DNA from: Candidatus Minusculum obligatum
Lineage (GTDB): Bacteria > Patescibacteriota > Minisyncoccia > Phycocordibacterales > Phycocordibacteraceae
DNA length: 64,000 nucleotides
Reading direction: 5' to 3'
NCBI GenBank assembly: GCA_002331145.1
Contig: DCYT01000001.1
Span: 154,002-218,001 of the forward strand
Part shown: piece by piece, positions 26,389 to 41,612 of the stretch
How positions within the stretch are numbered: the first letter of the stretch is position 1
Layout: each line of letters starts with the position of its first letter
Made by a program: the position numbers and the translations under genes
Notes under the pieces: generated by a model
What the model saw: only the letters and a program-made list of their open reading frames with translations
Told to the model about the DNA's origin: nothing
Databases searched by the model: none

Positions 26389-26415
26389 TGTGAACACTTT
26401 GGGGTAGAGTGTTCA
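26389..26415. repeat. Recombination core-type site A-left: 8-bp inverted arms GTGAACAC / GTGTTCA around an 11-bp asymmetric spacer TTTGGGGTAGA.
   Basis: The sequence TGTGAACACTTTGGGGTAGAGTGTTCA was read directly. Its reverse complement recurs at 27060-27088, a 26-bp perfect match. Confidence 0.8.
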
Positions 26416-26461
26416 TCGTAGTATTTCGCCCGTCAAGAAAGAAATAGGCCACCGGCCCACC

Positions 26462-27058
26462 TTGGCGCGCTTCACATCCATGATTTTCGATCTTCACGGC
26501 AACAGGAAGTACCTCACGCCTGCCGAGCGGGAGAGGTTTATCAATGCTTGTTATGCATTGCCTGAAGAAGAACAAACCTTTTGCCTCGCCCTCGCGTTTT
26601 CCGGATGCCGGATATCGGAGGCGCTCGCCTGCACTCCTGGTCGGGTCGACCGGGATATGCAGGCGCTAGTTATTCGATCGCTCAAAAAGCGTGTTGATGA
26701 GCCAGTATATCGTGCTGTTCCCCTACCTTCATGGCTTCTCGATAAGTTTAGCAGGCTCAGCGAAGGTTTGGATCCTCACCAGCGTTTGTGGCCCTGGGGC
26801 CGCACCCACGGTTGGAAAACTATCAAGCGCGTGATGAGCGCTGCGAGGATATCTGGAATGCATGCGACGCCGAAGGGGTTGCGCCACGGGTTTGGGGTGG
26901 CAGCGGTTCAAAGCGGAGTGCCGCTAAATCTGGTGCAGAGGTGGCTTGGTCACGCAAAGCTGGAAACAACCGCGATCTACACCAATGCGATTGGTGATGA
27001 GGAGCGCGCTATCGCCGCTCGGTTATGGGGCGACGTACAGCCCAAGCAGGCCGCCTGA
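26462..27058 (+). CDS. Short tyrosine recombinase (FimB/FimE-sized, 198 aa); putative DNA invertase.
   Basis: C-terminal catalytic region LRHGFGVAAVQSGVPLNLVQRWLGHAKLETTAIYT (R...H-x-x-R...Y). The gene lies entirely between inverted sites A-left and A-right. Confidence 0.8.
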   Translation: MARFTSMIFDLHGNRKYLTPAERERFINACYALPEEEQTFCLALAFSGCRISEALACTPGRVDRDMQALVIRSLKKRVDEPVYRAVPLPSWLLDKFSRLSEGLDPHQRLWPWGRTHGWKTIKRVMSAARISGMHATPKGLRHGFGVAAVQSGVPLNLVQRWLGHAKLETTAIYTNAIGDEERAIAARLWGDVQPKQAA

Positions 27059-27059
27059 C

Positions 27060-27088
27060 TGTGAACACTCTACCCCAAAGTGTTCACG
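27060..27088. repeat. Recombination core-type site A-right (inverted copy of A-left).
   Basis: TGTGAACACTCTACCCCAAAGTGTTCACG. The spacer is the reverse complement of the A-left spacer, so the two sites are inverted relative to each other. Confidence 0.8.
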
Positions 27089-27172
27089 AATACTTTAGCG
27101 CTGTCAGTGGATCCCTCCAAGTGAAGTAGTGGACCATAGACACCAAAAAAAGATTGGGTAATAATTCATTTA

Positions 27173-27199
27173 TTTGAATACTATAGTGCATAGCGTTCA
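27173..27199. repeat. Recombination site B-left (TTTGAATACTATAGTGCATAGCG).
   Basis: 21 of 23 bp identical to the reverse complement of 29953-29975. It shares the TGAA(C/T)AC half-site with the A sites. Confidence 0.65.
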
Positions 27200-28009
27200 A
27201 TGTGGTGACTGGCTCTCGATTCGGGTCAACGCTTGTTGAACACCCCGCAGCGCCTCTCGACGCCCTTCGAGAACGAACGACGCATCTGGCCCACGGCACC
27301 GGGTCCAATCCGACAGCTCTGGCAAATTTTCTGTGATCGCTGCTTCCGACGAAACCTGAACTTGATCGATGATATCGGCGTTTGCACTCAAGTGCTCATC
27401 CACACCAAATCCGGACACGCGAGCCTTGTTAAGGTCCAGCGATATCCTGGCTGCCTTTCCGAACATCTCTACCACGGCTCGGAGTTCTTCAGGCGACACT
27501 CCGATATGCAAGGGCGTCCGATGTTGGCCGGTCGCGGAAGTCAAATAGTACGAGCCATTTTCAATTAGGAGCGGCATCTGTCGACTGGCTGCGTAGTCAC
27601 CGAGTTCACGCATTGATGGCTCAGCGTTCCGCCAGTAATTCTTGGTCTGCTGCTCCTGGGACCTCCATCCGCCAAACATATACCCGGTATGGATGGTGAC
27701 AGAACGGCCGCCAATGTCCTTCGCCAAATCAATAACCGACCTGACAACAGCCTTGGAGGAGTCGCGGACCTCAGGCACGAGTGAAGTGTAATTGATGTCG
27801 TAATAGACGCTGTGAACGTGAAGTTCGACTCCGAGACTTTCGGCTAAGGCACGAAGGCTTGATCTACGCTCACTGTCGAATTCCACAATGAGATTTGGAG
27901 TTTGATCGGGAATTAGCTGAACCGCAGAAAATTCTTGCTCCGCTGCAGCCACAATAAAGTCTTCAAACCGCGACCCATAGGCTCTCGAATATGACAATAT
28001 CGTGTTCAT
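27197..28009 (-). CDS. Xylose-isomerase-like TIM-barrel protein (sugar-phosphate isomerase/epimerase, AP-endonuclease-2 fold).
   Basis: 270-aa protein with a TIM-barrel pattern (VQLIPD..., ...HVHSVYYDINYTS..., TIHTGYM..., PLLIENGSY). Confidence 0.55.
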   Translation of the reverse strand: MNTILSYSRAYGSRFEDFIVAAAEQEFSAVQLIPDQTPNLIVEFDSERRSSLRALAESLGVELHVHSVYYDINYTSLVPEVRDSSKAVVRSVIDLAKDIGGRSVTIHTGYMFGGWRSQEQQTKNYWRNAEPSMRELGDYAASRQMPLLIENGSYYLTSATGQHRTPLHIGVSPEELRAVVEMFGKAARISLDLNKARVSGFGVDEHLSANADIIDQVQVSSEAAITENLPELSDWTRCRGPDASFVLEGRREALRGVQQALTRIESQSPH

Positions 28010-28012
28010 GAT

Positions 28013-29263
28013 TTAGATTATATTTCTTATGTATTCAATTATGGAGCCGATATTCTCCCCATATACCATTCTCGCTATTCCGAATAAATATACCACAATA
28101 ACAAACGAATATGTTATCCATTTCTTGAATATTTTTGGCCTCACCTTGATCATATAAAACGGAATCAACACCATTGGCGCGACAACAATTATGTCCAGGT
28201 AACTCGGGGCCGACAGATAAAATCTGTGAAGTCCAAACATAATGATGACCGCTAAGCATACAAAAAACCAAAACGCCGCCCGGTACAAATGAGCCGGCAT
28301 TATCGTCGCCCAGCGGCTATGCACTTTGAATTTCACAAAATCAGGCTCTTCGAGTTTCGGCTGCACGATAGTCGCGTCCACTCGAAGCGTATCCCGTGAT
28401 GGATCAAATCCGCGCTGAATGGCATTCAGCGTCTCCGCGGCCCAGAACTGAACGCGCACTGTCCGCCCAGAAGAACGCCCGCTCTCTGTCCAACCAGCTC
28501 CGTTGAGATGCGTACTGTTTATCCATCGCACGGCCTGGGAAATACTTTCGCCGTAAACAGGCACCCCTAGTGCAATCATAGCTGGAATGATTGCGTAGGC
28601 ATCGCAGTGCTTCCATAGCGTGCCATCGACACGCGCCTCAAAGAAGCCCCATGAGAACGGCGCTTCGAATTGATCGCGAACGGCCTCAAAATCTCCCGGG
28701 TCGAAATCACGACAACAAGCCAGCGCTTGAATTGCGTACCCCGTAGCTACCACAGTCGGCTCATCGTCGCTGGCAAGCGACCAAGAATTTCCGCGCCGTT
28801 GAACGCGGAGCCACTTCGCCGCATTGCTAATTTCATCATCAAACTGTTCAGCAAGCGAAAGCGCCTTTGTTGCCAGGTGCGTCGAAAACACATCTGACTG
28901 ATCGTCAGCCGCCGTGGCACCCCATCCCCCATCACTGTTAACCGCTTGGAGAAGATGATTTATCGGACCGGTAGCGAGCGAGGCTGCATCTGGCCTGTTA
29001 GCCCAATAGCAAGCCATTGCGGCGAACGCTGAAAAACGGGTGCGCGCACCACGCTCCTCAATATGACTCGCGTAAACGTCGAGGAGGAAGTCCAGCCCCG
29101 ACAGAGCCGTATCTTCATCGCCAGCAAGTTTAAGTACACGAATTGCCTCAGCAGTATTTACGATTGAACTCGGTTGCTGATGGGTCAATCCCCAGCCGCC
29201 GTTGTGATTGCGATTCTTTCGCAACCAACGCGCAGCAGATTCTAGTTGAGTTTCATACGGCAT
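28013..29263 (-). CDS. Prenyltransferase/squalene-oxidase-repeat (alpha/alpha-toroid) protein fused to an AT-rich C-terminal multi-transmembrane extension.
   Basis: Repeats NHNGGWGL, NSDGGWGAT and NGAGWTESG. The last about 100 codons are conspicuously AT-rich and encode three or four transmembrane helices (FWFFVCLAVIIMFGL...). Confidence 0.6.
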   Translation of the reverse strand: MPYETQLESAARWLRKNRNHNGGWGLTHQQPSSIVNTAEAIRVLKLAGDEDTALSGLDFLLDVYASHIEERGARTRFSAFAAMACYWANRPDAASLATGPINHLLQAVNSDGGWGATAADDQSDVFSTHLATKALSLAEQFDDEISNAAKWLRVQRRGNSWSLASDDEPTVVATGYAIQALACCRDFDPGDFEAVRDQFEAPFSWGFFEARVDGTLWKHCDAYAIIPAMIALGVPVYGESISQAVRWINSTHLNGAGWTESGRSSGRTVRVQFWAAETLNAIQRGFDPSRDTLRVDATIVQPKLEEPDFVKFKVHSRWATIMPAHLYRAAFWFFVCLAVIIMFGLHRFYLSAPSYLDIIVVAPMVLIPFYMIKVRPKIFKKWITYSFVIVVYLFGIARMVYGENIGSIIEYIRNII

Positions 29264-29332
29264 GGCAGTCTCTATCTATTTCACATGCTAGCGGCTGACG
29301 GCTTAACTCGCACCAGCTTAGATGGTCGGTCT

Positions 29333-29890
29333 TTAACCCCACATGCGAGACGCGATCAGTCGTTCTTCCTCGCCAACTGCATTTGCGTAGATGGCCGTCG
29401 TTTCCATCTTAGCGTGCCCAAGCCATTTTTGAACCAGGCTAAGCGCCACTCCGCATTGTATCGCGTTTACACCAAATCCGTGCCGCAGCCCCTTAGGAGA
29501 CGCGTGTGCGCCGACGATTTTCGCGGCTGACATGACGCCCTTGACCTTGCTCCAACCAGTGGTGCGGGACCACGGCCACAGGCGATCCGATTGCTCTAAC
29601 CCCGCTGCTCGAATGTATTCCTTCAATTCCGCAATCACGCTCGGCGGAACTGGCACAGCTCGGAATTCCCGCCGTTCGCGCTTCTTGAGACTCTTGAATA
29701 TGACGACGCAATCTGTGTCGTCGACTAGATCGACTGTCGTCGCCAAAGCCTCGGAAATTCGGCATCCGGTAAACGCCAACACGACGCAGAAGAGCCGATC
29801 GGCAGCTGCAAGTTTCTCGGACAAGCTCAGAAAGCGCGCCCGCTCGGATCGATTAAGGTACATTCTCGCTCCAGCGTTGGAATACATCAT
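29333..29890 (-). CDS. Second short tyrosine recombinase (185 aa), a paralog of the first (about 60 % identical).
   Basis: LRHGFGVNAIQCGVALSLVQKWLGHAKMETTAIYANAVGEEERLIASRMWG. The whole protein is colinear with the first recombinase. It lies inside the B-left / B-right inverted pair. Confidence 0.8.
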   Translation of the reverse strand: MMYSNAGARMYLNRSERARFLSLSEKLAAADRLFCVVLAFTGCRISEALATTVDLVDDTDCVVIFKSLKKRERREFRAVPVPPSVIAELKEYIRAAGLEQSDRLWPWSRTTGWSKVKGVMSAAKIVGAHASPKGLRHGFGVNAIQCGVALSLVQKWLGHAKMETTAIYANAVGEEERLIASRMWG

Positions 29891-29952
29891 AAAACTCTGC
29901 GCTAACCGAACCCGATTTCAAACGGTCTTGACGCGCGCTGTTAGCTGATAAT

Positions 29953-29975
29953 CACTATGCACTATAGTGTTCAAA
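29953..29975. repeat. Recombination site B-right (CACTATGCACTATAGTGTTCAAA).
   Basis: Inverted, near-identical copy of B-left. It contains GTGTTCA, identical to the A-site arm. Confidence 0.65.
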
Positions 29976-30028
29976 TTTAACTATGTTTCTTGAAAACACG
30001 CTATTTCACGCGGCACGGTGACCGGCGT

Positions 30029-32908
30029 TCAGTCGCCATCCTGAGGCGGTTTGTTCACACTCGACGCGATGATCTTCGCAACTGTTTCTCGGCGGTGTTT
30101 GGCCTCTTCCTCAGAAACCGGCGTATAGCGGGTCGTTACCTTCCAGCCTCGCACGACGGTCTCGTCGACGGTGAGCTTGGCAGCTCGCGCATTGATTAGT
30201 TCGGTCAGCTCATCAGGCCCGATGATTGAGCAGGACTGTGTGTTGGCTTGATCAAGGTGTTCCTGGATATGGGCGCGATATCGCGTACGCCGGCCAACAT
30301 CCGGGACAACCAGGATGACCTCGTCAAATCCAGCCTTGAAGCATTTTTCAACATTACGCAGCTCAGCGTCTGCGGTGTTTGAGACGGATATCTCAACCGC
30401 GATCGAAAGCTTTTCGTGTTCGAGCCCGACATCGACGCTCCCGCTGCCGTCCAGAACGGTTTGCTCGACCGTCGCCTTGAACCCACGCGCTTGGGCCAGC
30501 TCTCTCACCCATTGCTGCAACCGTCTGTGTTGGCGCCCTCCCACGCCAGCCGCGTATGCATCGATTTCCGCCTTGCGGGTCTCTTTCACATTCTCCTTGG
30601 GGGCTGCATCCTTCTTCGCCGGATCGGATCGAGCCTCGTCTCCAGGTGCATCGGGTTTTTTGGCGCTAGCGGTGTGATCTGGCGCGGAGGGTGGGTCTTC
30701 AGCCCGCTTAGCGGGTGGAGGTGCTTGGTTCTCGGTATGCCGCGTTGGCTCTGTCGGCTCAGGCGCCGCGGGATTATCAGGAGCATCGGCCGCTTCGATC
30801 AGCGCCTCGATCTCATCCAAGGTGCTGCAATAGCGCTCCCGATTTTGGTCGAGAAGGCGGTAATATGCGTCGTCGTCGAGCGAGGCTTGTGTGTTGACCA
30901 AGCCAAGCTGGACATCCATGCGCAAGGCCTGTTCGGTCACACCCTTGGCGTAAACCGCAAACTCAGTGCGGTCGCGGCGCTTGCGCATGGACTGGATCAT
31001 GCCGGCGTCAACGCGCATGTCCTCTGCCATTGCCCGCGCATCCTTGGCCGATACGCCACCAGCAAACTTGATGGAGGTCGAGGCCATGACCGTCGAGCGC
31101 AGGCGCGTTGGCATCTGATCGAGGTGTTGAGCGGCGATGTGAAGGCCCACGCGGTATTTTCGGGCCTGGTTGAAAAGCTGCTCAAGCGTCTCATCGAAGT
31201 AGTCGTGAGCTTCATCGATATAGACATGCACGCGCCGGCGCGCATCTTCCTCCAAGGTCGCCCGCTCAAGGGAGGCCTGGGCGATCTTCGCAATGAAGAA
31301 GCGCCCGAAGATGGAACACCCATCGGCCTTGAGGAGATCTTTGGCCGTATTGATCAGGATGATCTTGCCGGCACTCATCGCTTCGAAGACGTCGAGTTTG
31401 TTTTGCGGGTGCGAGAACATTCGCTCAAATACCGGATTGGCGAGCACGCCCCAAAGCCGTCTCAGAATTTGTTTTTTGGTCGCCGAAAAGCTTGGCGCGA
31501 AGAACTCGGTCTGAAAGAAGCGTTTGGCTGATCCGTCGAGCTTTTGCATATAGGGCCTGAAGGGTTTGCCATCCTCCATCAGCGCGCGCAGCGTTTGAAC
31601 CGTCGCATCGGGAATGACCATCATCAGCCGAGCCAGATAGCGAAAGACGACACCCTGCTTTTGCGTGAGCTCCGCCCCCAATAGCGCCGCGAAGAAATAC
31701 TCATAAAGATCTATGACAGAGTTGAGGACGCGCTCCCTATCGGCCCGGGAATAGCCCTCGAGCCGGTCATGATCGAAAGCGAATAAATTGAGCGCGACTG
31801 GAAACTCCACATCGCTCGGATCGATCAAAACCAGCCGGTCGGCCAACCCTTCCGCGAGATAGGGATCAAAGAGTGCCAGTCGCGAGATCGTCTGAATGAG
31901 ATCGCCCTGGCTATCGATCACGATGACGCCAGGCGCGCAGTCTGCCCCCCTAACCAGATCATGATGGATCAGCTTGAGCAGGAGTTGGGTCTTGCCATGT
32001 CCGGACCCACCGACAATGAGCGCATGCTCACAGCGAAGCTCATCAGGCAGAAAGACTGGAACATGTGCCTCAAGCAGGCCCTGAAAGGGCGTATGACGCA
32101 AATAGGTCTCAACCAACTCAGCGGGACTATCGAAGCGGGCGTCTGCAGGCAGGATATAGGGCCGGGTGGGTGCCGGGTCTTGCGGGTTGATGTTGGAGGC
32201 CAGTGCCAGATTGGCCATCAGCTGCGTCCGGCAATCGAAGAAAAGTTCGTTCATAAAGGCGGGACCGCTTTCGCTGCAGACCTCCCGGACCCAGTCATCC
32301 ATCACGTCGGCCGGGTTTTCGATCATGCCCGCGAGTGGCACTTCAAGCGCAACCGCATCGGCTGAATGCTCATCATCAATGGCGGACCGCTCCGCGACTG
32401 CGTCCAGAACGCTGGCACACATGTGCAGCAGTAAGCCCTTTAAAAGGGGCAGGCGCTTATCAAAAAGATCAAAGAGCCGCTCACGCCGCAGCAAATAGCT
32501 GCGCAGCTCCACCCGCGTTCGCATCGGCAAGGCCGCGATCTCGGTGGGTGGGTCATCGTAGCGCGGATACCAATAGCATTCTTCGATGAGGACATGATCG
32601 ATCAGGTCAAAAAGCGCCTCTGCGAGCGCTCCTGAATAATGGGCATCGCTAGCATGCCAGGCACCGCTTAAAACTTCGGTGATCAGATCAAACCGGTTTT
32701 CAAGTGGGCCTTCCAGCAGCGCATCCTGTCGCGCCTCCAAACGCGCATGCAGGTCCACCAGCTCCGCCAGCTCACGGTCGCGCTCACTCATGCCCCAGCT
32801 GGAAAAAAGGCCTCGCCCGACTTTGGGGCCGAGCGAGGGCATATTGGCAGAACTATTCCAGCCTTCTTGCCAGGCCTTGGCGATCTCGGAGAAAAAGTCT
32901 CCCGCCAT
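30029..32908 (-). CDS. Large cytoplasmic FtsK/HerA/TraD-superfamily P-loop ATPase (959 aa) with a long N-terminal helical region and a C-terminal alpha/beta, possibly nuclease-like, domain.
   Basis: Walker A LIVGGSGHGKTQ and Walker B VHVYIDEAHDYF. The C-terminal about 150 aa (GSVDVGLEHEKLSIAVEISVS...FDEVILVVPD) is loosely PD-(D/E)xK-like. A low-complexity Pro/Ala/Lys linker is present. No transmembrane helix. Confidence 0.7.
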   Translation of the reverse strand: MAGDFFSEIAKAWQEGWNSSANMPSLGPKVGRGLFSSWGMSERDRELAELVDLHARLEARQDALLEGPLENRFDLITEVLSGAWHASDAHYSGALAEALFDLIDHVLIEECYWYPRYDDPPTEIAALPMRTRVELRSYLLRRERLFDLFDKRLPLLKGLLLHMCASVLDAVAERSAIDDEHSADAVALEVPLAGMIENPADVMDDWVREVCSESGPAFMNELFFDCRTQLMANLALASNINPQDPAPTRPYILPADARFDSPAELVETYLRHTPFQGLLEAHVPVFLPDELRCEHALIVGGSGHGKTQLLLKLIHHDLVRGADCAPGVIVIDSQGDLIQTISRLALFDPYLAEGLADRLVLIDPSDVEFPVALNLFAFDHDRLEGYSRADRERVLNSVIDLYEYFFAALLGAELTQKQGVVFRYLARLMMVIPDATVQTLRALMEDGKPFRPYMQKLDGSAKRFFQTEFFAPSFSATKKQILRRLWGVLANPVFERMFSHPQNKLDVFEAMSAGKIILINTAKDLLKADGCSIFGRFFIAKIAQASLERATLEEDARRRVHVYIDEAHDYFDETLEQLFNQARKYRVGLHIAAQHLDQMPTRLRSTVMASTSIKFAGGVSAKDARAMAEDMRVDAGMIQSMRKRRDRTEFAVYAKGVTEQALRMDVQLGLVNTQASLDDDAYYRLLDQNRERYCSTLDEIEALIEAADAPDNPAAPEPTEPTRHTENQAPPPAKRAEDPPSAPDHTASAKKPDAPGDEARSDPAKKDAAPKENVKETRKAEIDAYAAGVGGRQHRRLQQWVRELAQARGFKATVEQTVLDGSGSVDVGLEHEKLSIAVEISVSNTADAELRNVEKCFKAGFDEVILVVPDVGRRTRYRAHIQEHLDQANTQSCSIIGPDELTELINARAAKLTVDETVVRGWKVTTRYTPVSEEEAKHRRETVAKIIASSVNKPPQDGD

Positions 32909-32913
32909 CGTGG

Positions 32914-33318
32914 TCAGGCCGGCTCGATCTCGACAATCTGTTCGGACCCGTCAAATTGCCGCGCGACATCGATATAGCCGCGAATGTTCCGGCAGGCTTG
33001 ATGAACCTGGTTTTCCGTGGCGACCACCTCGTTCAGATCCTTGCATTCCAAGTGCTGGCCACTCACCAGGTCGCCGAGCGAAAAAGAGCGCTTCGTCACG
33101 CGGTCCATGAGCGCGCCGCCCAGGCCGGCCCAGCTTCCCGCTTCTGATTTTGCGAGGTTTTGGTCAGCCGCCTCGGATGTGTAAACGAGTTGGCCTTTGA
33201 GCTTGTACTTTTTGACCAGCTCGGCCTCCTCGTCGGTCAGTTCAGCCATCACGTCGAGAATGAAAATCGGTGTTCCGGTCAGTCCTGATTTTTGGCTACG
33301 GCGTAGTTTGAGTTGCAT
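32914..33318 (-). CDS. Small hypothetical protein (about 133 aa) encoded between the two ATPases.
   Basis: The ORF is tightly packed between the ATPase genes (6-bp gap downstream). No recognisable motifs. Confidence 0.45.
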   Translation of the reverse strand: MQLKLRRSQKSGLTGTPIFILDVMAELTDEEAELVKKYKLKGQLVYTSEAADQNLAKSEAGSWAGLGGALMDRVTKRSFSLGDLVSGQHLECKDLNEVVATENQVHQACRNIRGYIDVARQFDGSEQIVEIEPA

Positions 33319-33399
33319 CTCTGCCTCCCCTGTTATTCGCGTCAAGCGCGAACCGATCAAAGCAAGACAACCTAAAAGAGTCGAGATAAATTTGGCGAT

Positions 33400-34602
33400 C
33401 TATAGTTTTGCCATGGATTTCAACACGACATCGGGCAACACGGTACAGGCACTAAAGGGCTTGGACGGGTTCCCATCGATCAGCAGGCGCAAGTAAATCT
33501 GCTGATTGGCCAGATTGATCATGTCGAGCCGAGCAAACTTGGGATCAAACTCCTTGGCCAAGTATCCCGCATCCTCCGCGCCCACCCGAAAAGCGATGAG
33601 CGTGCCGGCATTACCCAGCGCGGCCCGGCGGATATCCGGATCGATCTGATGGAGATATTGATGGGCCATCGTCAAGCCGAGCCGGTATTTGCGTAGCTCG
33701 GAGAGCATCTGGGCGATCGCCAGGGTCGTGAAGTTCTGAAACTCATCGACATAGACAAAAAAGTCCCGTCGGTCGGCTTCCGGAATACTGGCCCGGGAGA
33801 ACGCAGCAACCGCCAACATGGTCGTCAGGACACCGCCAACCAGACGCGTACTGTCCGCGCCCAATCGCCCCTTGGCGAGGTTCACGATCAAGACCTGTCC
33901 CTCATCCATGATTTTGCGAAGCCGGATCTGTCCCCCATCATCGGTGAAAAAGCGCAAAAGCCGCGGGTCCGCCAATAGCGCCCCGACTTTGGATTGAACC
34001 GGCGCGATGGCGTCAGCCTGATATCGATAAGAGTATTTGGGAAACTCAACCTGCCAGAAGCGTTTGATGGTCGGGTTTTCAATGTGCGGCAAAATGGATC
34101 GGCGATAATCCGCGCTGGTGAGCAATTTGAGCAAGTCCGGCAAATGGGCTGATGGCTGGTCAAGCAGGGCCATGATCGCATTGCGCAAGACATGCTCCAT
34201 GCGCGACCCCCAAGCATCCGCCCACATCATGCGAAAGACATCCAAGAGGCTGGCCGCCACCAATGGCCGCAAAACACTGGGTACCCGCGCAAACGGATTA
34301 TACGCCAAGGCGCAGTCCGGATCGGCCGGGTCAAGATAGACGACATCCTCGCGGCCCAGAGCTTTCGCGTGAGCCAGGCAGCGTTCGGCCAGGTCGCCAT
34401 GCGGATCGAGCACCGCGCAGCCGGCCTCATCCATCACATCGCCTGCAATCAGGGTCTCCAGCAAAGTCGTCTTGCCGGTACCGGTCTTGCCGATGATGTA
34501 GACATGAGAGAAGCGATCCTCAGTCTTGATCCCGAAAAGCCGCGTGTCGATGCGAAATCGGACACGGGCAAATCGGCGGACATTGGCGGCAAGATCTGAC
34601 AT
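33400..34602 (-). CDS. FtsK/HerA/TraD-superfamily P-loop ATPase (about 400 aa), a paralog of the ATPase core of the 959-aa protein.
   Basis: Walker A VYIIGKTGTGKTTL and Walker B FFVYVDEFQNF. Its blocks are colinear with the 959-aa protein (KYRLGLTMAHQYLHQ versus KYRVGLHIAAQHLDQ). The start was chosen at the Met just before the P-loop. No transmembrane helix. Confidence 0.7.
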   Translation of the reverse strand: MSDLAANVRRFARVRFRIDTRLFGIKTEDRFSHVYIIGKTGTGKTTLLETLIAGDVMDEAGCAVLDPHGDLAERCLAHAKALGREDVVYLDPADPDCALAYNPFARVPSVLRPLVAASLLDVFRMMWADAWGSRMEHVLRNAIMALLDQPSAHLPDLLKLLTSADYRRSILPHIENPTIKRFWQVEFPKYSYRYQADAIAPVQSKVGALLADPRLLRFFTDDGGQIRLRKIMDEGQVLIVNLAKGRLGADSTRLVGGVLTTMLAVAAFSRASIPEADRRDFFVYVDEFQNFTTLAIAQMLSELRKYRLGLTMAHQYLHQIDPDIRRAALGNAGTLIAFRVGAEDAGYLAKEFDPKFARLDMINLANQQIYLRLLIDGNPSKPFSACTVLPDVVLKSMAKL

Positions 34603-34896
34603 GCCCTTCAGTGTGCGCCAGGACGGGCTATCCCCGCAGACTGGGTGCGGCGCGCTTTGCGCGCCTTTGTCCTGACCAACCAGACAGAGATCGACTTTAC
34701 CAGAGGCTTCATGTGTGCACCGCCTGTCAGGGCTCCTCATCGCGCCTAGCGCTGTGCGCCGCCGATCGCAACCCGGCAAGCCGGGTCCTTCGCTTCGCTA
34801 CGGTCCATTGGATGCGCTCTGCGGCTTGAACACAGCGCTGGGTCTCTTCGTGTCGCCCGCATCCAGGCGGGCCTTCAAACCAGCGGAGAAACCCCG

Positions 34897-36645
34897 ATGA
34901 ATATAATTACCCTCCCAATTGAGCAGCTTTCCATTTCCAAGCTCAATATGCGCCATGGCCGAAAGGCTCCGGACATCGACGATCTCATCCCCAGCATCAA
35001 AGAAAGGGGCCTCCTCAATCCCCTGATCGTGGTGCCAACCGAGCAATCAGACCGTTTCGAGATTATCGCAGGTCGGCGCCGTTACTTCGCCGCCAAGGCT
35101 GCAGAGACCCTCACCGAGCTGCCTTGCATGGTCTTGGACACTCAAAGCGATGCCGATGCCTTGGAAATCTCGCTGATTGAAAACCTCGCCCGGCTCGAGC
35201 CGGACCCGATGAGTGAATGCGAAGCCTTCGCCAAACTCGTTGCCAAGGGCCGCAGCGTCGAAGAGGTCGCGGCCCTGTTCGCCAAGACGCCCCGCCATAT
35301 CAAACAGCGCCTCGCTCTGGGCAAGCTGATCACGCCGATCAAATCAGCCTTCCGCAAGGACGAGATCGATGCCGCAACGCTGCAAACCCTCACCCTCGCC
35401 AGCAAGGACCAACAACGCGAATGGATGCGACGCCTCACCGACAAGGCCGACTACGCCCCGACCGGCTTGCGCTTGAAGCAATGGTTGATGGGCGGCCAAT
35501 CGATCCAAACCGAGACGGCTCTTTTTGATCTGAACGACTACCCCGGCCAGATCATCACAGACCTTTTCGGCGAGGCGAGCTATTTTGACGATAGCGAAGC
35601 CTTCTGGTCACTCCAGATGTCTGCCATCGACGCCCTGCGCGACAAATACCTTGAAGCCGGTTGGTCCGATGTCGAGGTGATCCCCGCAGAGCGCTATTTT
35701 GAGACGTGGGAGTATGAGAGCCGTACCAGGGCCAAAGGAGGCCATGTCGTCATCGACGTCGCCTCCAGCGGGGCTGTGAGTACGCATGAGGGTTATCTCT
35801 CCCGCCGGGCCATTCGACAGCTCGAAGCGGAAGCTTCCGGCGAGGTGCCTTCCAAGCCGATCAGGCCGGAAATGACCAAGAAGCTTGAAAACTATGTCGC
35901 ACTCCACCGGCATGGGATGGTGCGCACGGCGCTTCTTGAAGCGCCCGATCTGGCCTTGGTGCTGATGGCAGCCCATCTTCTGGTCGGCTCGAATCTTTGG
36001 TCTGTGCGCGCTGATCCGCAGCGGGCCGCGTGTGCGTCAACCGCCACGAGCGTTACGGACTCTTCCGCAAAGGCCGGATTTGAAATGGCCCGTGAACGGG
36101 TCTGCTCTCTTCTCGACATGCCATTTGATGCCAGCCCGTTGGTCACCTCCTCCGGTAAGCCGAAAGCCTTCGCCGAAATGTTCAAGCGCCTGGCTGGATT
36201 GTCACAGCCTGAGCTGATGACGGTACTCACCTTCTTGATGGCCGAAAGCCTTGAAGTCGGGTCCATCGGTGTCGAATTGGCGGGAAGTGCAATGGGCATC
36301 GATCCGGCCGCGCATTGGACACCGGATGAGGCCTTCTTTGAACTCCTGCGGGATAAGCCCGCGATCAACGCCATGCTTGTCCAGACGCGCGGCGAGGCCA
36401 TCGCGAACGCCAACAAGAACCAGACCCGCAACCAGCAGATTGAAGCGCTCAAGACCGGTCTTGGCCAAAGCGACGAGCCTTGGGCCCCGGCCTATCTGGC
36501 CTTTCCCTTCTCCATCTATACGGACAAGTCTGGTGGCGAGTTGGCAGACCATGCCGCCATCATCGAAGCGGTCACAGCTGGCGATGAAGCTGCGAGCGAG
36601 ACGGTCGGTGAAACTACCGCGGAACCGGTTCCCGATGCCGCGTGA
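34897..36645 (+). CDS. ParB/Srx-like nuclease-domain protein with a long C-terminal extension (582 aa).
   Basis: The N-terminal ParB N-domain IEQLSISKLNMRHGRK...GLLNPLIVVP...FEIIAGRRRYFAAK (GxxRxxA box) is followed by about 400 aa without known motifs. It is transcribed divergently from the ATPase operon. Confidence 0.7.
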   Translation: MNIITLPIEQLSISKLNMRHGRKAPDIDDLIPSIKERGLLNPLIVVPTEQSDRFEIIAGRRRYFAAKAAETLTELPCMVLDTQSDADALEISLIENLARLEPDPMSECEAFAKLVAKGRSVEEVAALFAKTPRHIKQRLALGKLITPIKSAFRKDEIDAATLQTLTLASKDQQREWMRRLTDKADYAPTGLRLKQWLMGGQSIQTETALFDLNDYPGQIITDLFGEASYFDDSEAFWSLQMSAIDALRDKYLEAGWSDVEVIPAERYFETWEYESRTRAKGGHVVIDVASSGAVSTHEGYLSRRAIRQLEAEASGEVPSKPIRPEMTKKLENYVALHRHGMVRTALLEAPDLALVLMAAHLLVGSNLWSVRADPQRAACASTATSVTDSSAKAGFEMARERVCSLLDMPFDASPLVTSSGKPKAFAEMFKRLAGLSQPELMTVLTFLMAESLEVGSIGVELAGSAMGIDPAAHWTPDEAFFELLRDKPAINAMLVQTRGEAIANANKNQTRNQQIEALKTGLGQSDEPWAPAYLAFPFSIYTDKSGGELADHAAIIEAVTAGDEAASETVGETTAEPVPDAA

Positions 36646-36716: not shown

Positions 36717-37061
36717 CTAATACTCCTCTGCCAAAAAGAGCGTCAGAACCCGCGTCGTTTTTTCCGGATCGGTGGGATCATCCGAGCCATATTTCAGCGT
36801 CGGATCATAATAATCGATCTTCCACAGGACCGGCTCGTCCTCAATCACGACCCGCCCAAAATCATGCTCGCCATATGGGTCGTTTTCTTCGGAGAACTCA
36901 CTTTGGGCCTGCATGGCTGTCACCGCTTGGGCAATGAACGCATCGCCGCGGTGGACTACCCCCGGGGTGATCAGGATTTGTCCGCCTTCTCCTTTGATGC
37001 GCAAGGCATCATTGAGGTCGCGGATCGCGCAGGTTCGACAATCGTCATCAGTCATCGACAT
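36717..37061 (-). CDS. DUF3768-like small conserved protein (plasmid/ICE-associated family).
   Basis: MSMTDDDCRTCAIRDLNDALR...DPYGEHDFG...WKIDYYD. An AAGGAG RBS lies 7 nt upstream of the chosen ATG. Confidence 0.55.
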   Translation of the reverse strand: MSMTDDDCRTCAIRDLNDALRIKGEGGQILITPGVVHRGDAFIAQAVTAMQAQSEFSEENDPYGEHDFGRVVIEDEPVLWKIDYYDPTLKYGSDDPTDPEKTTRVLTLFLAEEY

Positions 37062-37340
37062 GATTTTGCTCCTTATCGCGTCGCCGGCATCGAGGATCGG
37101 TGCCGGCGGACGACACCGAGCAAAACGGTGTCTTCCAAACTGAACGCTTGTTTGTGCGGGCGGCAGGTCCCGCACACCCATCATGGTCGCATGAGCAGCG
37201 TTATCCCCACAGGCTGGGTCATGCGCGGTTTTCGCGCGTGCGCGCGCCTTCGGGGATGTTAGGGACATCCCCGAAGGCGCGACGGCGCGAGGCCAGGGCG
37301 AACGGCGCGTATCGGTGGTGGACGGCTAAGCCGTCTCGGC

Positions 37341-38750
37341 CTACCGGCCATCCTCCCCGACATCCCCGGTCTCCACCCGCGTGATCTCACCGAGCTTTTC
37401 AGCCAGAAGGGCCACATCCTCATCGCTCACGCCATAGCGTCGATAAAGCCGTTCCAACGTTTCGCCCTGCAGCTTTGGCACGATGAAAACGCCATGGCTC
37501 TTGGTGGTCTTCACATTGAGCCGGGTGCGCACGACATGCCCCATGGCGCGCGCGCCCACCGGTTTGACCGATCGGTCCTGAAAGGCGCGGGCATGATCTG
37601 TTGCAATGGACTGCACGCTCACGCCCGGTCCTGTCTCCGCCTGCATACGCTTTTTGATGACGGTGAGCACTTCCGCTTCCAGAGATTGTCCGCGCGCATC
37701 CGCCAATGCGGCCTGAGCGGCAACCGCATGGGCCAGTATCGCTTCGCGGTCCTCTTGCGCCTCTGTCACCGACAAGAGCGGTGCCAGGATCTGATGCATA
37801 CGCGGTTCGATGGCGTGTTGGTCAACGTCCAGAGGTTTGGGGTCACCAAAGCGCGCGAACTGGGTGAAGCGATACATCAAGAGCTTGTTGCGCAGGATCG
37901 AAGCATCGGCCTCCTGCTGGCTGGGCAAGCTGATGGGCACATCGGCGCGCAAGGAGGGGTTCGAGCTGGTCTCGGTTAAAAATCGGCTCTCCAAGGCCGG
38001 ATCATCATAACGGCCGCGCATACCAATGATTTTGGGTCCGAACACCTTGAACGCGCGCGGCACGAAGTCCTTGCCATTACTGGTCTCGCTACGCAGCACC
38101 GGATAGCCTTTGACATTGCCGGCATTGAGGATTTTCGCGATGAGCGCGCTCTCGTCGGAAAACCGAAAATCTGCCTCATCGATGATCAGCGTACCGCCGA
38201 TCTGATCGAGTAGATGAAAGATCGGCGAGGTCGTTGAGGCACCCCCGGCAAAGATCGGTTTGTAACAAATCGATCCGATGACCGTGAGAAAGCGCGTCTT
38301 GCCCGTTCCATAATCGCCGCGTCGGCGCAGATAGGGCAGCTCGTTGAACCGGTCATGCACCCAGCTTAGCAGGACATAGTTGGCAGCCAGTCGCTCAAAG
38401 GCGTCCGGCACATCGACATATTTATGGATATAGGCACGGATCGCCTCGACCAGATCCGCCACCTCGCCATAATCCATCGGTGCCTGGGGCAAGCGCACCA
38501 CATTATGCTCGACCAAGGCTGCGATATTGCGCATCGGCACATAACGCGTGGCCGTGTCCGGACAATAGCTATCGAGGATCGCCGCTTTGCCGTGCCGCCA
38601 GATCGCCAGGCGCGGCTTGTCGTCCTTGCTATCAAACACCGTCTCGATGATTTCGCCAGATGGACCGATTGCCGACACGACCGGGACAAGGGTCTTGTTT
38701 TGCCTGTTGCGCTCCGACCCTTTAGGAGCGTCCTGATTATTTTGTGTCAT
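37341..38750 (-). CDS. P-loop NTPase, possibly a primase/helicase-type (D5/P4-like) replication protein of a mobile element.
   Basis: Walker A RRRGDYGTGKTRFL and Walker B GTLIIDEADF. 469 aa with no transmembrane helix. Confidence 0.45.
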   Translation of the reverse strand: MTQNNQDAPKGSERNRQNKTLVPVVSAIGPSGEIIETVFDSKDDKPRLAIWRHGKAAILDSYCPDTATRYVPMRNIAALVEHNVVRLPQAPMDYGEVADLVEAIRAYIHKYVDVPDAFERLAANYVLLSWVHDRFNELPYLRRRGDYGTGKTRFLTVIGSICYKPIFAGGASTTSPIFHLLDQIGGTLIIDEADFRFSDESALIAKILNAGNVKGYPVLRSETSNGKDFVPRAFKVFGPKIIGMRGRYDDPALESRFLTETSSNPSLRADVPISLPSQQEADASILRNKLLMYRFTQFARFGDPKPLDVDQHAIEPRMHQILAPLLSVTEAQEDREAILAHAVAAQAALADARGQSLEAEVLTVIKKRMQAETGPGVSVQSIATDHARAFQDRSVKPVGARAMGHVVRTRLNVKTTKSHGVFIVPKLQGETLERLYRRYGVSDEDVALLAEKLGEITRVETGDVGEDGR

Positions 38751-39073: not shown

Positions 39074-40609
39074 ATGAATGAATATTTTGCCTACACGCGA
39101 GTGTCGACCGCCAAACAAGGCCAAAAGGGCGTGTCGCTGCAGGAACAGCGCGACGCCATTGAGCGATACGCTCAGCGCAAGCAGATCGTGATTTCCCAGT
39201 GGTTTGAGGAACGACAGACCGCTGCCAAGACCGGACGGCCTGTGTTCAATGATATGGTTCGACGCTTGCGAAAGCGCAAAGCGGTCGGTGTCATCCTTCA
39301 CAAAGTCGACCGAGCGACCCGTAACTTTCGGGACTGGGCTGATCTGGGCGAGCTTGGTGAACTCAATATCGAGATACATTTCGCCATGGATGAGTTGGAC
39401 CTCAACTCTCGCAGCGGTCAACTCATGGCGGACATCCAAGTCGTGATGGCGGCCGACAATATTCGCAACCTTCGAGAAGAAACGAAAAAGGGTATCTATG
39501 GCCGCTTCAAGCAGGGTCTTTATCCGCTGCCAGCCCCAATGGGCTATCGCAACAACGGCCCCGGCAACCCTAAAACAATCGACCCCAAGCTCGGTCCGCT
39601 CATCGCAGAGGCGTTCGACCTCTATGCCACCGGCGAGTACTCATTTGCACCCCTCCGCGCGCATCTCGCAAAGCGAGGCCTCACCACCAGCAAGGGCAAG
39701 CCGATCTCTAAGGGCATGATGGGGCGCATCCTCAACAATCCCTTCTACATGGGGCTGATTAAGGTCAGGCGAACAGGCGAGACCTTCCAGGGCGTACACG
39801 ATCCATTGATATCGCCGACAACGTTCAAACGGGTTCAAACCCGTCTGGCCGGAAAAACCGTCAATCGCGTTTGTCGGCATAGCTTTTTGTACAAGCGGCT
39901 TTTGCAATGCGGAAAGTGCCAATCCTTCTTGATCGGGGAGGTGCAGAAGGGCCGCACCTATTATCGCTGTCGTAGCGAGGGCTGCTCCGGTGCATGCATC
40001 AATGAGGTGCTCGTCACCCGTCAGGTCGAGGCCACACTGTCCAAGCTAAGGCTCTCGGAAGCGGAGGCAAAAAAGCTGGCTGATGCATTTGAAGCCATCG
40101 AACAGGAAGAAGGCTCTGAACTCGCCGACGAGCGCCAACGCATTGTCGCGCGCCACGCGCACTTGGAACAGCGCCTCGATCGGCTGGACGAATTGGTCTT
40201 GGACGAAACCATGACCCGTGAAAGCTACCGCCGCCAGCATGAGCGCATCATTTGTGAGCAAAATGAGCTCAAGCAAGACATGGCGAAACTAGGCGCTTCA
40301 GGGGCCGCGAAACGTGAACGGTTCGAAAAATTCTTCGAACTCGTGCAAAGCCCGTCATTGAGCCATTTTTCTCAAGATCGGGCTGAAATGCGCGAAATCC
40401 TGAAAACGACTACTTCGAACTTTTGGGTGGACGGAAAAAACGTCTCTGTTGAGCTGTTTTTGAGCTATCAAGCGCTCGAAAAACGCCACTCCGTCCCTAC
40501 TGGCTACCCGACAGGGATTCGAACCCCAATTTCTTGGACCAAAACCAAGCGTCCTACCATTAGACGATCGGGTAATTACTTACCTCTTAGGCATCATCTT
40601 GCCCAATAA
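39074..40609 (+). CDS. Large serine recombinase (integrase-type) at the terminus of the high-GC segment. The ORF reads through the antisense of tRNA-Gln, so its true C-terminus is uncertain.
   Basis: The N-terminus YTRVSTAKQGQKGVSLQEQ has the catalytic Ser. A resolvase domain (VGVILHKVDRATRN), a recombinase domain and a zinc-ribbon (CGKCQS...YYRCRSEGC) plus a coiled-coil follow. The last about 35 codons overlap the tRNA on the opposite strand. Confidence 0.85.
   Translation: MNEYFAYTRVSTAKQGQKGVSLQEQRDAIERYAQRKQIVISQWFEERQTAAKTGRPVFNDMVRRLRKRKAVGVILHKVDRATRNFRDWADLGELGELNIEIHFAMDELDLNSRSGQLMADIQVVMAADNIRNLREETKKGIYGRFKQGLYPLPAPMGYRNNGPGNPKTIDPKLGPLIAEAFDLYATGEYSFAPLRAHLAKRGLTTSKGKPISKGMMGRILNNPFYMGLIKVRRTGETFQGVHDPLISPTTFKRVQTRLAGKTVNRVCRHSFLYKRLLQCGKCQSFLIGEVQKGRTYYRCRSEGCSGACINEVLVTRQVEATLSKLRLSEAEAKKLADAFEAIEQEEGSELADERQRIVARHAHLEQRLDRLDELVLDETMTRESYRRQHERIICEQNELKQDMAKLGASGAAKRERFEKFFELVQSPSLSHFSQDRAEMREILKTTTSNFWVDGKNVSVELFLSYQALEKRHSVPTGYPTGIRTPISWTKTKRPTIRRSGNYLPLRHHLAQ
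40501..40574 (-). tRNA. tRNA-Gln (anticodon UUG), with CCA encoded.
   Basis: Manually folded reverse complement TACCCGATCGTCTAATGGTAGGACGCTTGGTTTTGGTCCAAGAAATTGGGGTTCGAATCCCTGTCGGGTAGCCA. The 7-bp acceptor stem, D-arm, anticodon loop UUUUGGU and TPsiC loop TTCGAAT all pair. Confidence 0.8.
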
Positions 40610-41612
40610 GTTTGATTACTGCAAGTTCTAGAGGAAGAGAAGGAATTGGAGCAAAGCGCATTTCCTTACTTGCCTCAAGATGAGCTATAAGAGCTGCAGG
40701 AGATATTGCACCTGTAAGCTCTTTCATTTGAGCAACTTCATCCTCTCCATACTGGGCTATAAAGTCCTTTTCCATACTTGCCACGCTCTTTAGAAGCAAC
40801 ACTGCTCGAAGATAATCAAGCACAAGTGTAAGGAAGGTGCGCATATCAACTCCAGACTCTTCAGCTGAAGCTATAGAAGAAAGCGCTTTCTCTTTCTCCC
40901 CTTTTAGTGTTCCTTCTACATAGTCACTTATAAGCTTTCTCTTTGGAGCTCCAGTTACTTCCTCTACCTCATCTACTGATACTTTCTTATCTTTAGATGA
41001 AGCATGAATCTTCTGCAAGATTGAAAGCGCATCTCTAAATGATCCATCTGCAAGAAGTGCTATAAGTTCTGCAGCTGATGTCTCAAGTTCAAACTCTTCT
41101 TTCTTCGAAACTTTACTTACAACACTTGTAAGTACTTTTCGTGAAGGCTTTTTAAAGGTAAAAGTCTGGCAACGAGAAACAATAGTCTCTGGAAGTTTAT
41201 CTGTCTCTGTTGTAGCAAGAATGAATACAACATGCTTTGGCGGCTCTTCTAAAGTTTTAAGAAATGCGTTGAAGGCACTCTTTGAAAGCATGTGTACCTC
41301 ATCGATAATGTAGACCTTGTATGGAGAATCAAATGGAAGTGTATATACATTCTCTGAAAGCTCTCGAATATTATCTACTCCTGTGTGAGATGCAGCATCA
41401 ATCTCATAGAGATCATTTTCAGTACATCCAATAGCTTTTGCAAAGATACGAGCAATAGTTGTCTTTCCAAGACCTCGAGAACCCGCAAAGAGATATGCGT
41501 GCCCTATGTTTTCTTGTTCAATAGCACCTTCTAGAACTTTTGTTATGTGATCTTGTCCTACTACCTCTGAGAATTTTTTCGGACGATACTTTCGATAGAG
41601 CGCTTCTGCCAT
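40587..41612 (-). CDS. dnaX: DNA polymerase III subunit gamma/tau (short form).
   Basis: MAEALYRKYRPKKFSEVVGQ...GHAYLFAGSRGLGKTTIARIFAKAIGC is the clamp-loader AAA+ signature. The likely start is the internal Met of the 370-aa ORF. Confidence 0.85.
   Translation of the reverse strand: MAEALYRKYRPKKFSEVVGQDHITKVLEGAIEQENIGHAYLFAGSRGLGKTTIARIFAKAIGCTENDLYEIDAASHTGVDNIRELSENVYTLPFDSPYKVYIIDEVHMLSKSAFNAFLKTLEEPPKHVVFILATTETDKLPETIVSRCQTFTFKKPSRKVLTSVVSKVSKKEEFELETSAAELIALLADGSFRDALSILQKIHASSKDKKVSVDEVEEVTGAPKRKLISDYVEGTLKGEKEKALSSIASAEESGVDMRTFLTLVLDYLRAVLLLKSVASMEKDFIAQYGEDEVAQMKELTGAISPAALIAHLEASKEMRFAPIPSLPLELAVIKLIGQDDA

Follow-up and report, generated by a model that had tools for sequence, protein, structure and literature searches.

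The DNA considered here is a stretch of 64,000 nucleotides, hereafter the window, from Candidatus Minusculum obligatum, a member of the Patescibacteriota (contig DCYT01000001.1, positions 154,002 to 218,001), in which an operon of three genes, referred to as the trio, encodes two P-loop ATPases and a small protein within a mobile element bounded by serine recombinases. In the order of transcription, all on the minus strand, the operon comprises ATPase1 (33400-34602), encoding a soluble coupling-protein-like P-loop ATPase of 400 amino acids (aa) counted from its ATG, the length at which its near-identical relatives are likewise called; the small gene (32914-33318), encoding a 134-aa protein without a known family or fold match; and ATPase2 (30029-32908), which encodes 959 aa and begins 5 nt after the stop codon of the small gene. 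A ParB-type gene (34897-36645, plus strand, 582 aa) is divergent from ATPase1 across an intergenic region of 294 bp (34603-34896) with hairpins and palindromes. An initial annotation, made from the sequence alone, had located these four open reading frames (ORFs) where they are found, with the correct lengths for both ATPases and the ParB-type protein, and had recognised the divergent layout; the small protein, given there as 133 aa, is one residue longer, and the intergenic region had been given as 290 bp. The Walker A and B motifs that it reported are legible in ATPase1 (GKTGTGKTT and VDEF) and in ATPase2 (GGSGHGKTQ and IDEAH), as is a linker rich in Pro, Ala, and Lys in the latter.

The two ATPases are paralogues, as had been proposed: profile-profile comparison of the ATPase2 motor core (30809-32053, minus strand, approximately residues 286-700) with the ATPase1 profile gave E = 5e-41 over 341 aligned columns (hhalign). 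ATPase1 matched the Pfam families TrwB_AAD_bind (5e-10), T4SS-DNA_transf (2.5e-9), DUF87 (2.8e-9), and TraG-D_C (2.6e-3), and a family profile built from 35 orthologues retrieved TrwB (2.7e-8) and DotL (1.4e-6), followed by HerA (5e-4), from the PDB. ATPase2 is more divergent than ATPase1 in Pfam (TrwB_AAD_bind 1.2e-4, DUF87 3.3e-3); its motor core contains dense invariant columns in the family alignment and matched the PHROG family phrog_5156 (1.2e-28), and at least 1587 homologues of similar length were found. The best NCBIfam matches of the ATPases are TraD families, at scores far below the NCBI curated thresholds, and the two proteins are therefore best regarded, on sequence grounds, as relatives of the type IV coupling proteins lying outside any named family. 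A scan of 19-residue Kyte-Doolittle means revealed no transmembrane segment in any product of the operon, with maxima of 1.49 for ATPase1, 1.56 for ATPase2, and 0.81 for the small protein, compared with 2.74 for a membrane-protein control. The initial view of the pair as soluble TraD/TrwB/HerA-like paralogues without transmembrane helices is hence borne out by hydropathy and by the Pfam and PDB profile matches.

ATPase2 carries three further regions around this core. The helical N-terminal region (32054-32908, minus strand, approximately residues 1-285) contains few conserved columns, among which R136 is invariant, and yielded no Pfam match even at E <= 10 and no PDB match with the family profile. 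The low-complexity linker (30566-30808, minus strand, approximately residues 701-781), rich in Pro, Ala, Lys, and Glu, is poorly conserved and of variable length in the family alignment, and is followed by a C-terminal domain (30029-30565, minus strand, residues 782-959 and the stop codon) that had been described as loosely restriction-endonuclease-like. An AlphaFold2 model of residues 782-959, computed from an alignment of 28 homologues, reached a mean predicted local distance difference test (pLDDT) score of 84 and displays an alpha-beta-beta-beta-alpha-beta core, and all its significant Foldseek neighbours are PD-(D/E)xK nucleases, i.e., Can2, AF1548, the R2 endonuclease domain, EcoT38I, Bax1, PaqCI, and PspGI. 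The earlier description is upheld in this respect, and the C-terminus of ATPase2 can be assigned with confidence, on the basis of the predicted structure, to the PD-(D/E)xK nuclease fold. The family alignment shows no variation at H794, Q798, E815, D826, and E849 and almost none at E839 and K855; the conserved acidic residues are consistent with an active site. The fold search alone was informative in this case: comparison with Pfam returned only chance-level matches to restriction-enzyme families, and the domain profile gave chance matches only against PDB sequences. The domain is C-terminal in every one of 2635 representative proteins at the 50% identity level, and a profile search of 1.84 billion representatives returned members of the same family only and no other architecture.

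The position of this nuclease acquires its meaning from a sister clade. The only close plasmid relatives of ATPase2, in Sulfitobacter mediterraneus (NZ_CP081110.1) and on Methylomagnum ishizawai plasmid pRS11DPr5, are 47-48% identical to it and approximately 700 aa in length, with neither the linker nor the nuclease; in both, the small gene and ATPase2 are linked to a gene for a Replic_Relax (PF13814) protein. Among 80 metagenome loci fetched with these two plasmid proteins, 69 included at least 900 bp of downstream sequence, and in all 69 a Replic_Relax ORF directly follows ATPase2 on the same strand, usually overlapping it or lying within approximately 20 bp. Six of these ORFs, including the most divergent, were compared with PF13814 and every one passed its gathering threshold. 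The fused nuclease domain occurs in none of the 80 sister-clade loci, whereas in 80 loci of the window's own clade it is present in 79, the exception being cut by the end of its contig, and a Replic_Relax ORF is present in none. CONJscan treats proteins of PF13814 as MobC (PMC5357655), and the family is part of the PD-(D/E)xK superfamily (PMC3424549); according to a review, the few mobilisable plasmids and elements with a VirD4-type coupling protein of their own also encode MobC (PMC5704250). A gene for a MOBC-type relaxase is accordingly located in the sister clade exactly where the window's clade has its fused nuclease. Furthermore, 48 of 73 sister-clade ATPase2 proteins possess an N-terminal hydrophobic anchor, as in canonical coupling proteins, and the sister loci repeat the backbone partners of the window, namely ATPase1, the DUF3768 protein, serine recombinase 1, the 469-aa P-loop protein, and small tyrosine recombinases, which are described below.

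Membership of the fused domain in Replic_Relax itself was considered and rejected. Neither the window copy nor any of the 28 aligned copies matched PF13814 at E <= 10, and the hhalign probability was below 1% against 1, 2, and 33 Replic_Relax sequences. Owing to this lack of sequence or profile similarity, the fused nuclease and Replic_Relax are read as separate PD-(D/E)xK nucleases, each recruited to this position, rather than as one family. The fused domain does share with MOBC relaxases a PD-(D/E)xK fold with conserved acidic residues and the linkage to the coupling-protein-like gene of its element.

Conservation of the operon was assessed in the 80 loci of the window's clade, which are genome loci of ATPase2 homologues taken with 10-kb flanks, the ORFs of which were searched with the window proteins. 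The small gene is directly upstream of ATPase2 in 77 loci, and ATPase1 lies within 10 kb of ATPase2 in 56, usually immediately upstream and sometimes downstream; the strong co-occurrence anticipated by the initial annotation, the absence of which it had named as evidence to the contrary, is thereby established for the trio. The search with window proteins placed a large serine recombinase within the flanks of at least 30 loci, and clustering of the neighbouring ORFs recovered serine recombinases in 29, a double helix-turn-helix (HTH) regulator in 19, RadC in 11, the ArdC N-terminal domain in 8, small tyrosine recombinases in 8, and a WYL regulator in 6. By contrast with this recurrent set, variable cargo lies downstream of ATPase2 as well as between ATPase1 and the small gene: for the 148 genes closest to the trio, 92 Pfam families were counted, which include type I and type II restriction-modification genes and none of which occurs in more than 8 proteins. 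Across these variable islands, besides serine recombinases and HTH regulators, recurrence is confined to the small gene, ATPase2, and, in most cases, ATPase1, from which we infer that the trio is the constant part of recombinase-bounded islands with varying cargo, often defence genes. Many of these relatives are inserted in comM, the Mg-chelatase-like competence gene (e.g., loci L051 and L093): its 3' part was found in 11 loci, always downstream and 2.6-9.3 kb from ATPase2, and its 5' part in 4 loci, beside a serine recombinase. Close relatives carry different recombinases, and the serine recombinase 1 of contig L014 matches that of the window at only E = 2e-37. Such differences among close relatives indicate module swapping and shifts of target site. 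Carriers available in culture are Hyphobacterium vulgare KCTC 52487 (L017), Euryhalocaulis caribicus JL2009 (L018), Phenylobacterium aquaticum KACC 18306 (L032), Peiella sedimenti XZ-24 (L034), Kordiimonas aestuarii JCM 17742 (L069), and Desulforhopalus singaporensis DSM 12130 (L075), and the trio is also present in complete genomes such as OY969615.1, OZ244931.1, and CBDDPY010000002.1. As a separate observation, a set of multiubiquitin, ThiF, and DUF6527 or Prok-E2 and JAB genes lies near the trio on unrelated replicons (L003/L094, which is the Methylomagnum plasmid pRS11DPr5, and L012/L013), with DUF6527 found twice among the immediate neighbours, and this gene set may be a favoured cargo of these elements.

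The element in the window is approximately 17 kb long, extending from ~23.4 to ~40.5 kb between two outward-reading large serine recombinases. Large serine recombinase 2 (23463-25391, minus strand) forms the left end; it has two C-terminal HTH domains and a CcrB-like NCBIfam match (3.6e-41), and its orthologues (E 1e-140 to 1e-158) stand beside the trio on contigs of Pirellulaceae and on contigs labelled Saccharibacteria and Paceibacterota. Large serine recombinase 1 (39074-40609, plus strand; Pfam Resolvase 4e-25, Recombinase 2e-14, and Zn_ribbon_recom) forms the right end. The right junction with host DNA is at approximately 40510, where nucleotide homology to the relative contigs L004-L009 stops, ~100 bp before the stop codon of the recombinase, and the GC content is ~58% up to ~40.5 kb of the window and ~43% thereafter. 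With an integrase of its own and defined junctions, the segment has the properties of an integrative element. The C-terminus of serine recombinase 1 is encoded across the integration junction, with its final ~33 codons past the break at 40510, and the 3' end of the gene overlaps that of a dnaX-like gene on the other strand (40587-41699, minus strand).

On the left, an independent Logan contig extends 8.3 kb past the edge of the window (L175:12645-20927), and the high-GC zone ends ~4.6 kb outside, resulting in a high-GC island of ~45 kb in all (55-61% GC) next to the dnaX-like gene. The rest of this zone holds type II secretion genes with a secretin (7184-9166), an RHS toxin (10040-14278), and metabolic genes, and no VirB4, pilus, or relaxase gene was found in it or in the stretch left of the window. 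Genes of a type IV secretion system (T4SS) are lacking in the window, in the whole ~45-kb island, and in the 10-kb flanks of the relatives, where no type IV secretion family recurs among the 80 loci. The earlier statement that no complete conjugation apparatus is present therefore holds over this larger range, with neither VirB4, pilus, nor canonical relaxase genes found; nor, in the part of the island beyond the left edge, do T4SS and relaxase genes accompany the coupling-protein-like genes, an arrangement that had been named beforehand as speaking against the initial proposal.

Taken together, these observations are best accounted for, with a probability of roughly 0.55 in our estimation, if the trio serves to process and transfer DNA, as the mobilisation core of an element of ~17 kb that is integrative, probably mobilisable, and without a T4SS of its own. 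In the proposed mechanism, serine recombinases would first excise the element, and the fused nuclease would then nick or cut the circular form at a putative origin of transfer (oriT). The ATPase2 motor, to which the nuclease is tethered by the flexible linker, would together with ATPase1 and the small protein as an adaptor unwind or pump the DNA, which would be coupled to the mating channel of a co-resident helper conjugative element. A role in maintenance or establishment would fall to the ParB-type, DUF3768, and 469-aa P-loop proteins of the window and, in relatives, to ArdC and RadC; the recurrence of the latter two, which are conjugation-associated accessory genes, is in favour of a mobilisation function. 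A parallel would be found in CloDF13-type plasmids and in streptococcal mobilisable elements with their own coupling protein and a MOBC relaxase. The suggestion of a plasmid-processing module in the initial annotation thus came near to what is proposed here.

Several points weigh against a mobilisation function. No oriT, nick site, or helper T4SS was identified, and no conjugative systems are known from the present host, a patescibacterium. The membrane anchor typical of the docking of coupling proteins is missing from both window ATPases according to hydropathy, and the NCBIfam models of TraD and VirD4 all score below threshold, the best being TIGR03743 with 50.4 bits against a cut-off of 366. 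Equating the fused nuclease with a relaxase draws on position and fold class only. The loci were chosen by the presence of ATPase2, and the status of the trio as a backbone was inferred from the variability of the cargo and from insertions within the trio. Finally, many relatives have a defence setting, individual loci having Pycsar, CBASS, BrxR, or restriction-modification genes as neighbours.

This last point leads to the alternative that the trio is itself a defence or anti-mobile-element cargo, in which a hexameric translocase of the HerA/FtsK type with a tethered PD-(D/E)xK nuclease loads on and degrades invading phage or plasmid DNA, similar to the multi-gene anti-phage module considered in the initial annotation. 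Such a system would be akin to the HerA-nuclease pairs of defence or to the MADS ATPase. Motor and nuclease architectures are common in defence systems, the absence of a T4SS and of a canonical relaxase in cis would be explained, and both ATPases matched the PADLOC profile mad8 (7e-15 and 2.5e-14) and, weakly, HerA profiles. The mad8 match, however, covers the ATPase core only. MADS requires mad6, mad7, and mad8 (10.1101/2023.03.30.534895), and membership in this system was rejected, as no other mad profile matches any neighbouring gene; more generally, PADLOC called no known defence system and detected no further component of one among the ten genes of the region. Moreover, 19 loci have ATPase1 and the small gene set apart by 1-8 kb of unrelated, variable genes, which is unusual for a defence operon; it is the defence genes that vary in these islands and the trio that stays constant; and the sister clade, with a MOBC relaxase gene in place of the nuclease and with membrane-anchored coupling-protein-like versions of ATPase2, points away from defence. 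The trio is probably not an anti-phage system, and we consider the defence explanation unlikely.

An equally unlikely explanation is vertical maintenance of the element, either by rolling-circle-like replication of the excised circle, initiated by the nuclease, or by FtsK-like segregation or resolution, with the participation of the ParB-type and 469-aa P-loop proteins. It is in agreement with the solubility of the ATPases, with the ParB-type gene and the orphan P-loop gene beside the trio in the window, and with the occurrence of the module on plasmids typed as non-mobilisable by MOB-suite; in addition, PF13814 is named "replication-relaxation" and some of its members have been described as plasmid replication proteins (PMC3424549). 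The Methylomagnum plasmid, however, has a replication initiator and partition genes of its own, separate from the module, and the ParB-type and P-loop genes are missing from most loci. Among solved structures, those closest to the ATPases are of coupling proteins, many sister-clade proteins are anchored in the membrane, and the conjugation-associated ArdC and RadC recur, all of which is more readily reconciled with transfer than with maintenance.

Far less support remains for the proposal that the ATPases are FtsK/HerA-type packaging motors by which a satellite-like element hijacks the capsids of helper phages or of gene transfer agents. The ATPases matched the PHROG families phrog_5156 (5e-38) and phrog_2666 (annotated as "terminase large subunit"; 7e-13) and, weakly, Pox_A32 in Pfam, and gene transfer agents are known from Alphaproteobacteria, to which many carriers belong. 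Nevertheless, no capsid, portal, or other virion gene was found in any locus, the matches to phage genomes in a protein-mode search are only ~25% identical and are to Bacillus phages, the small protein has no viral fold match, and the linkage with a MOBC relaxase points to conjugation, which together make packaging very improbable. The notion that these are ordinary coupling proteins of a complete conjugative element, with the T4SS and relaxase just outside the window, is scarcely tenable, since, despite the coupling-protein-like Pfam and NCBIfam matches and the continuation of the high-GC island past the left edge, that island ends without the genes in question, is otherwise filled with type II secretion, RHS, and metabolic genes, and has relatives in whose flanks no T4SS family recurs.

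The other genes of the element can be considered in the light of the mobilisation hypothesis. The small protein, the obligate partner of ATPase2, was modelled by AlphaFold2 with a pLDDT of 87; it had no match in Pfam, PADLOC, NCBIfam, or PHROG, and no significant match in the PDB profile search or in Foldseek searches of the PDB and of viral structures. A homologue precedes the ATPase2 gene, there without the nuclease, on the Methylomagnum plasmid (hhalign 2.6e-27) and in sister-clade loci. The ParB-type protein had been described as possessing an N-terminal ParB/Srx nuclease domain. The ParB part of this description stands (Pfam ParB_N 2e-16; in the PDB, Spo0J at 1.2e-18 over residues 4-182, Noc, and KorB at 4e-9), whereas the domain is not specifically a nuclease, the protein being of the Spo0J/Noc/KorB type, with a ParB N-terminal domain followed by an HTH domain (HTH_ParB 7e-4) and with the motif AGRRRY legible as its GxxRxxA box; approximately 400 aa without an assigned function follow. 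Its gene, presented initially as a companion of the trio, was found in 6 of the 80 loci of this clade and in 0 of the 80 sister-clade loci, and is a lineage-specific accessory outside the conserved core. No ParA-like match was obtained among the scanned ORFs of at least 150 aa between 23.4 and 40.6 kb.

The intergenic region 34603-34896 between the ParB-type gene and ATPase1 is nearly identical, by alignment, in the window and in the relative contigs L004, L008, and L014, despite the fact that the ATPase2 protein of L008 is only 74% identical to that of the window. It contains a stem, GGCGCGC-TTT-GCGCGCC, at 34649-34665 and palindromes centred on AGCGCT, and represents a candidate regulatory, ParB-binding, or oriT region. 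Beyond the ParB-type gene, the DUF3768 protein (36717-37268, minus strand; Pfam DUF3768 2.3e-30) is a recurrent neighbour of ATPase1, being found in 10 of the 80 loci of the window's clade, beside ATPase1 in many sister-clade loci, and on the Sulfitobacter plasmid. It is followed by the 469-aa P-loop protein (37341-38750, minus strand), with the motifs GDYGTGKT and IIDEAD and no match in Pfam, PADLOC, NCBIfam, PHROG, or the PDB, which is paired with serine recombinase 1 in the window and adjoins recombinases of this type in 10 of the 80 loci and in sister loci. It may be an accessory ATPase of recombination or replication, judging from its motifs and neighbours.

Directly downstream of the operon, two segments bounded by inverted repeats have been rearranged. 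The first is an exchangeable or invertible cassette (27172-29976) delimited by a 22-nt inverted repeat (27172-27193 and 29955-29976, 95% complementary), which contains a small tyrosine recombinase (29333-29890), a membrane protein similar to prenyltransferases and squalene-hopene cyclases (SQHop-cyclase), the C-terminal tail of which is hydrophobic, and a TIM-barrel protein of the AP_endonuc_2 family. Alignments with L004-L007 are interrupted at 29953 and 27087, i.e., at the repeats, and these contigs hold a different cargo of ~6 kb at the same site, with methyltransferase, NUDIX, nucleotidyltransferase, deaminase, and ThiF genes; the alignments suggest exchange of the cassette at the 22-nt repeats. 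The second, an invertible segment of 699 bp (26389-27087), encloses a small tyrosine recombinase gene (26462-27058) between the arms of a perfect 26-nt inverted repeat (26390-26415 and 27062-27087); this segment aligns to the 94%-identical L004-L007 in the orientation opposite to its flanks and provides direct comparative evidence of inversion. Rearrangements at both repeat-bounded segments are therefore real. No terminator-like site was found after the ATPase2 stop codon on the minus strand, and transcription of the operon may continue into the cassette end that happens to adjoin it. Phase variation of the operon's output, suggested in the initial annotation, is nevertheless not borne out, because the two sets of repeats are located past the stop codon of ATPase2 (30029) and the operon's own products cannot be switched by these inversions.

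Outside the element, an ORF of 1244 aa (19719-23453) just beyond the left recombinase matched nothing in Pfam or PADLOC and is the sole member of its own 90% identity cluster in a collection of 15 billion proteins. Further to the left, a third large serine recombinase of 417 aa straddles position 1 of the window (L175:12078-13331), and a SMODS/AGS_C protein, a CBASS-like nucleotidyltransferase (L175:15814-17136), lies at the far left of the high-GC island, with small ORFs also present in this extra stretch. Because of the third recombinase and the SMODS/AGS_C protein at its far left, the 45-kb island is suggested to have arisen by tandem accretion of at least two recombinase-bounded elements.

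The host of the island was assessed from its low-GC flank, where ClpB (54390-57077) is 87% identical to a protein of "Patescibacteria group bacterium UBA2103", 85% identical to a Wolfebacteria protein, and ~74% identical to many Paceibacterota and Minisyncoccia proteins; the short dnaX-like gene at the junction is also, we presume, typical of the Patescibacteria group. The backbone between 29953 and 40510 is 94.3% identical in nucleotides to L004-L007 and 88.9% identical to a Maricaulis contig with flanks of 65-68% GC, and here the same backbone resides in a Patescibacteria genome of ~42% GC, which speaks indirectly for recent mobility of the element. Either the island recently entered a genome of the Candidate Phyla Radiation (CPR) from Alphaproteobacteria, or the scaffold contains two chimeric joins. 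Both junctions are contained in one Tara scaffold of 602,686 bp and the left junction also in the independent Logan contig; seven assembly blocks hold contigs of 0.2-1 Mb with an island gene, and ATPase2 homologues occur on further large contigs labelled Saccharibacteria and Paceibacterota. Long island-bearing contigs in several assemblies thus appear to favour a real insertion and to weaken the case for a chimera. In a bolder proposal, the trio would be an unconventional and largely self-contained DNA-export module, in which soluble twin motors and a tethered nuclease need no classical conjugative pore of their own kind, and the islands would cross wide host boundaries, including that from Alphaproteobacteria to their patescibacterial epibionts, as the near-identical backbone in a CPR genome of ~42% GC would suggest; we regard this as a rather long shot. 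If such self-contained export were true, the island would also allow CPR cells to be matched to their hosts.

Proteins of this family are currently annotated as "hypothetical" or with the generic name [quoted passage not shown]. Should the trio indeed be a mobilisation core, it would represent a new architecture, in which a nickase is fused to a coupling-protein-like motor and accompanied by a second paralogous motor and an obligate small partner. It would then define widespread serine-recombinase islands that carry genes for defence, restriction-modification, and metabolism in Alphaproteobacteria of marine and soil habitats and in further groups. Such islands would escape relaxase-based tools (MOB typing and CONJscan), which may explain why the two plasmids with the module are typed as non-mobilisable; fused and separate nucleases would furthermore constitute a natural experiment on PD-(D/E)xK enzymes as relaxases. 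The island in the CPR genome, provided that it is not an assembly artefact, would be a rare case of recent large-scale gene flow into Patescibacteria. In the literature, no paper mentioning DUF3768 was found and nothing relevant was found on TrwB_AAD_bind (PF10412) or on comM-integrating serine-recombinase elements.

Among known systems, the closest are CloDF13 MobB/MobC and an integrative and mobilisable element (IME) of Streptococcus salivarius (PMC5704250; PMC5357655), which likewise combine a coupling-protein-like ATPase with a nuclease of the PD-(D/E)xK fold, without mating-pore genes; elements of this kind also have their own recombinase, and the sister clade has exactly this gene pair. 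In the window's element, by contrast, a long linker joins the nuclease to the ATPase, no homology of the nuclease to PF13814 is detectable, the ATPases are twin, paralogous, and unanchored, a 134-aa partner is obligate, and the integrase is a large serine recombinase. TrwB of R388, VirD4, TraD, and DotL share the homologous P-loop core and the TrwB_AAD_bind and TraG-D_C signatures and include the nearest solved structures, but the proteins described here lack the N-terminal transmembrane domain, score far below curated cut-offs, and have no T4SS in cis, and ATPase2 adds a unique N-terminal region of 285 aa and the nuclease domain. The sister clade is 47-48% identical in the ATPase core and shares the small upstream partner as well as the backbone partners; it differs in that its nuclease is a separate MOBC gene, that many members are anchored in the membrane, and that it occurs on plasmids as well as in islands. 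HerA-NurA, the HerA-associated defence pairs, and mad8 of MADS similarly unite a P-loop ATPase of the HerA/FtsK/TraD group with a nuclease, and partial mad8 and HerA matches were obtained; unlike these assemblies, the trio has its best matches among coupling proteins, lacks their partner genes, and belongs to the backbone of islands rather than to their cargo. In the MOBF relaxase-helicases TrwC and TraI, an HUH relaxase and a superfamily 1 (SF1) helicase are combined in one polypeptide. By analogy, ATPase2 may likewise join a DNA-nicking domain and an ATP-driven motor in one protein, which would enable a single polypeptide to cut the transferred DNA as well as to process it, although the folds are unrelated (a PD-(D/E)xK nuclease and a coupling-protein-like ATPase in the present case) and the order of the domains is reversed. 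Four features are new and appear undescribed in the searchable literature: an unclassified nuclease fused to the ATPase, paired soluble motors, a small protein as obligate partner, and serine-recombinase islands that target comM. The system is otherwise of a known kind, in which a recombinase-mobilised element carries its own coupling protein and a nickase of the restriction-endonuclease fold.

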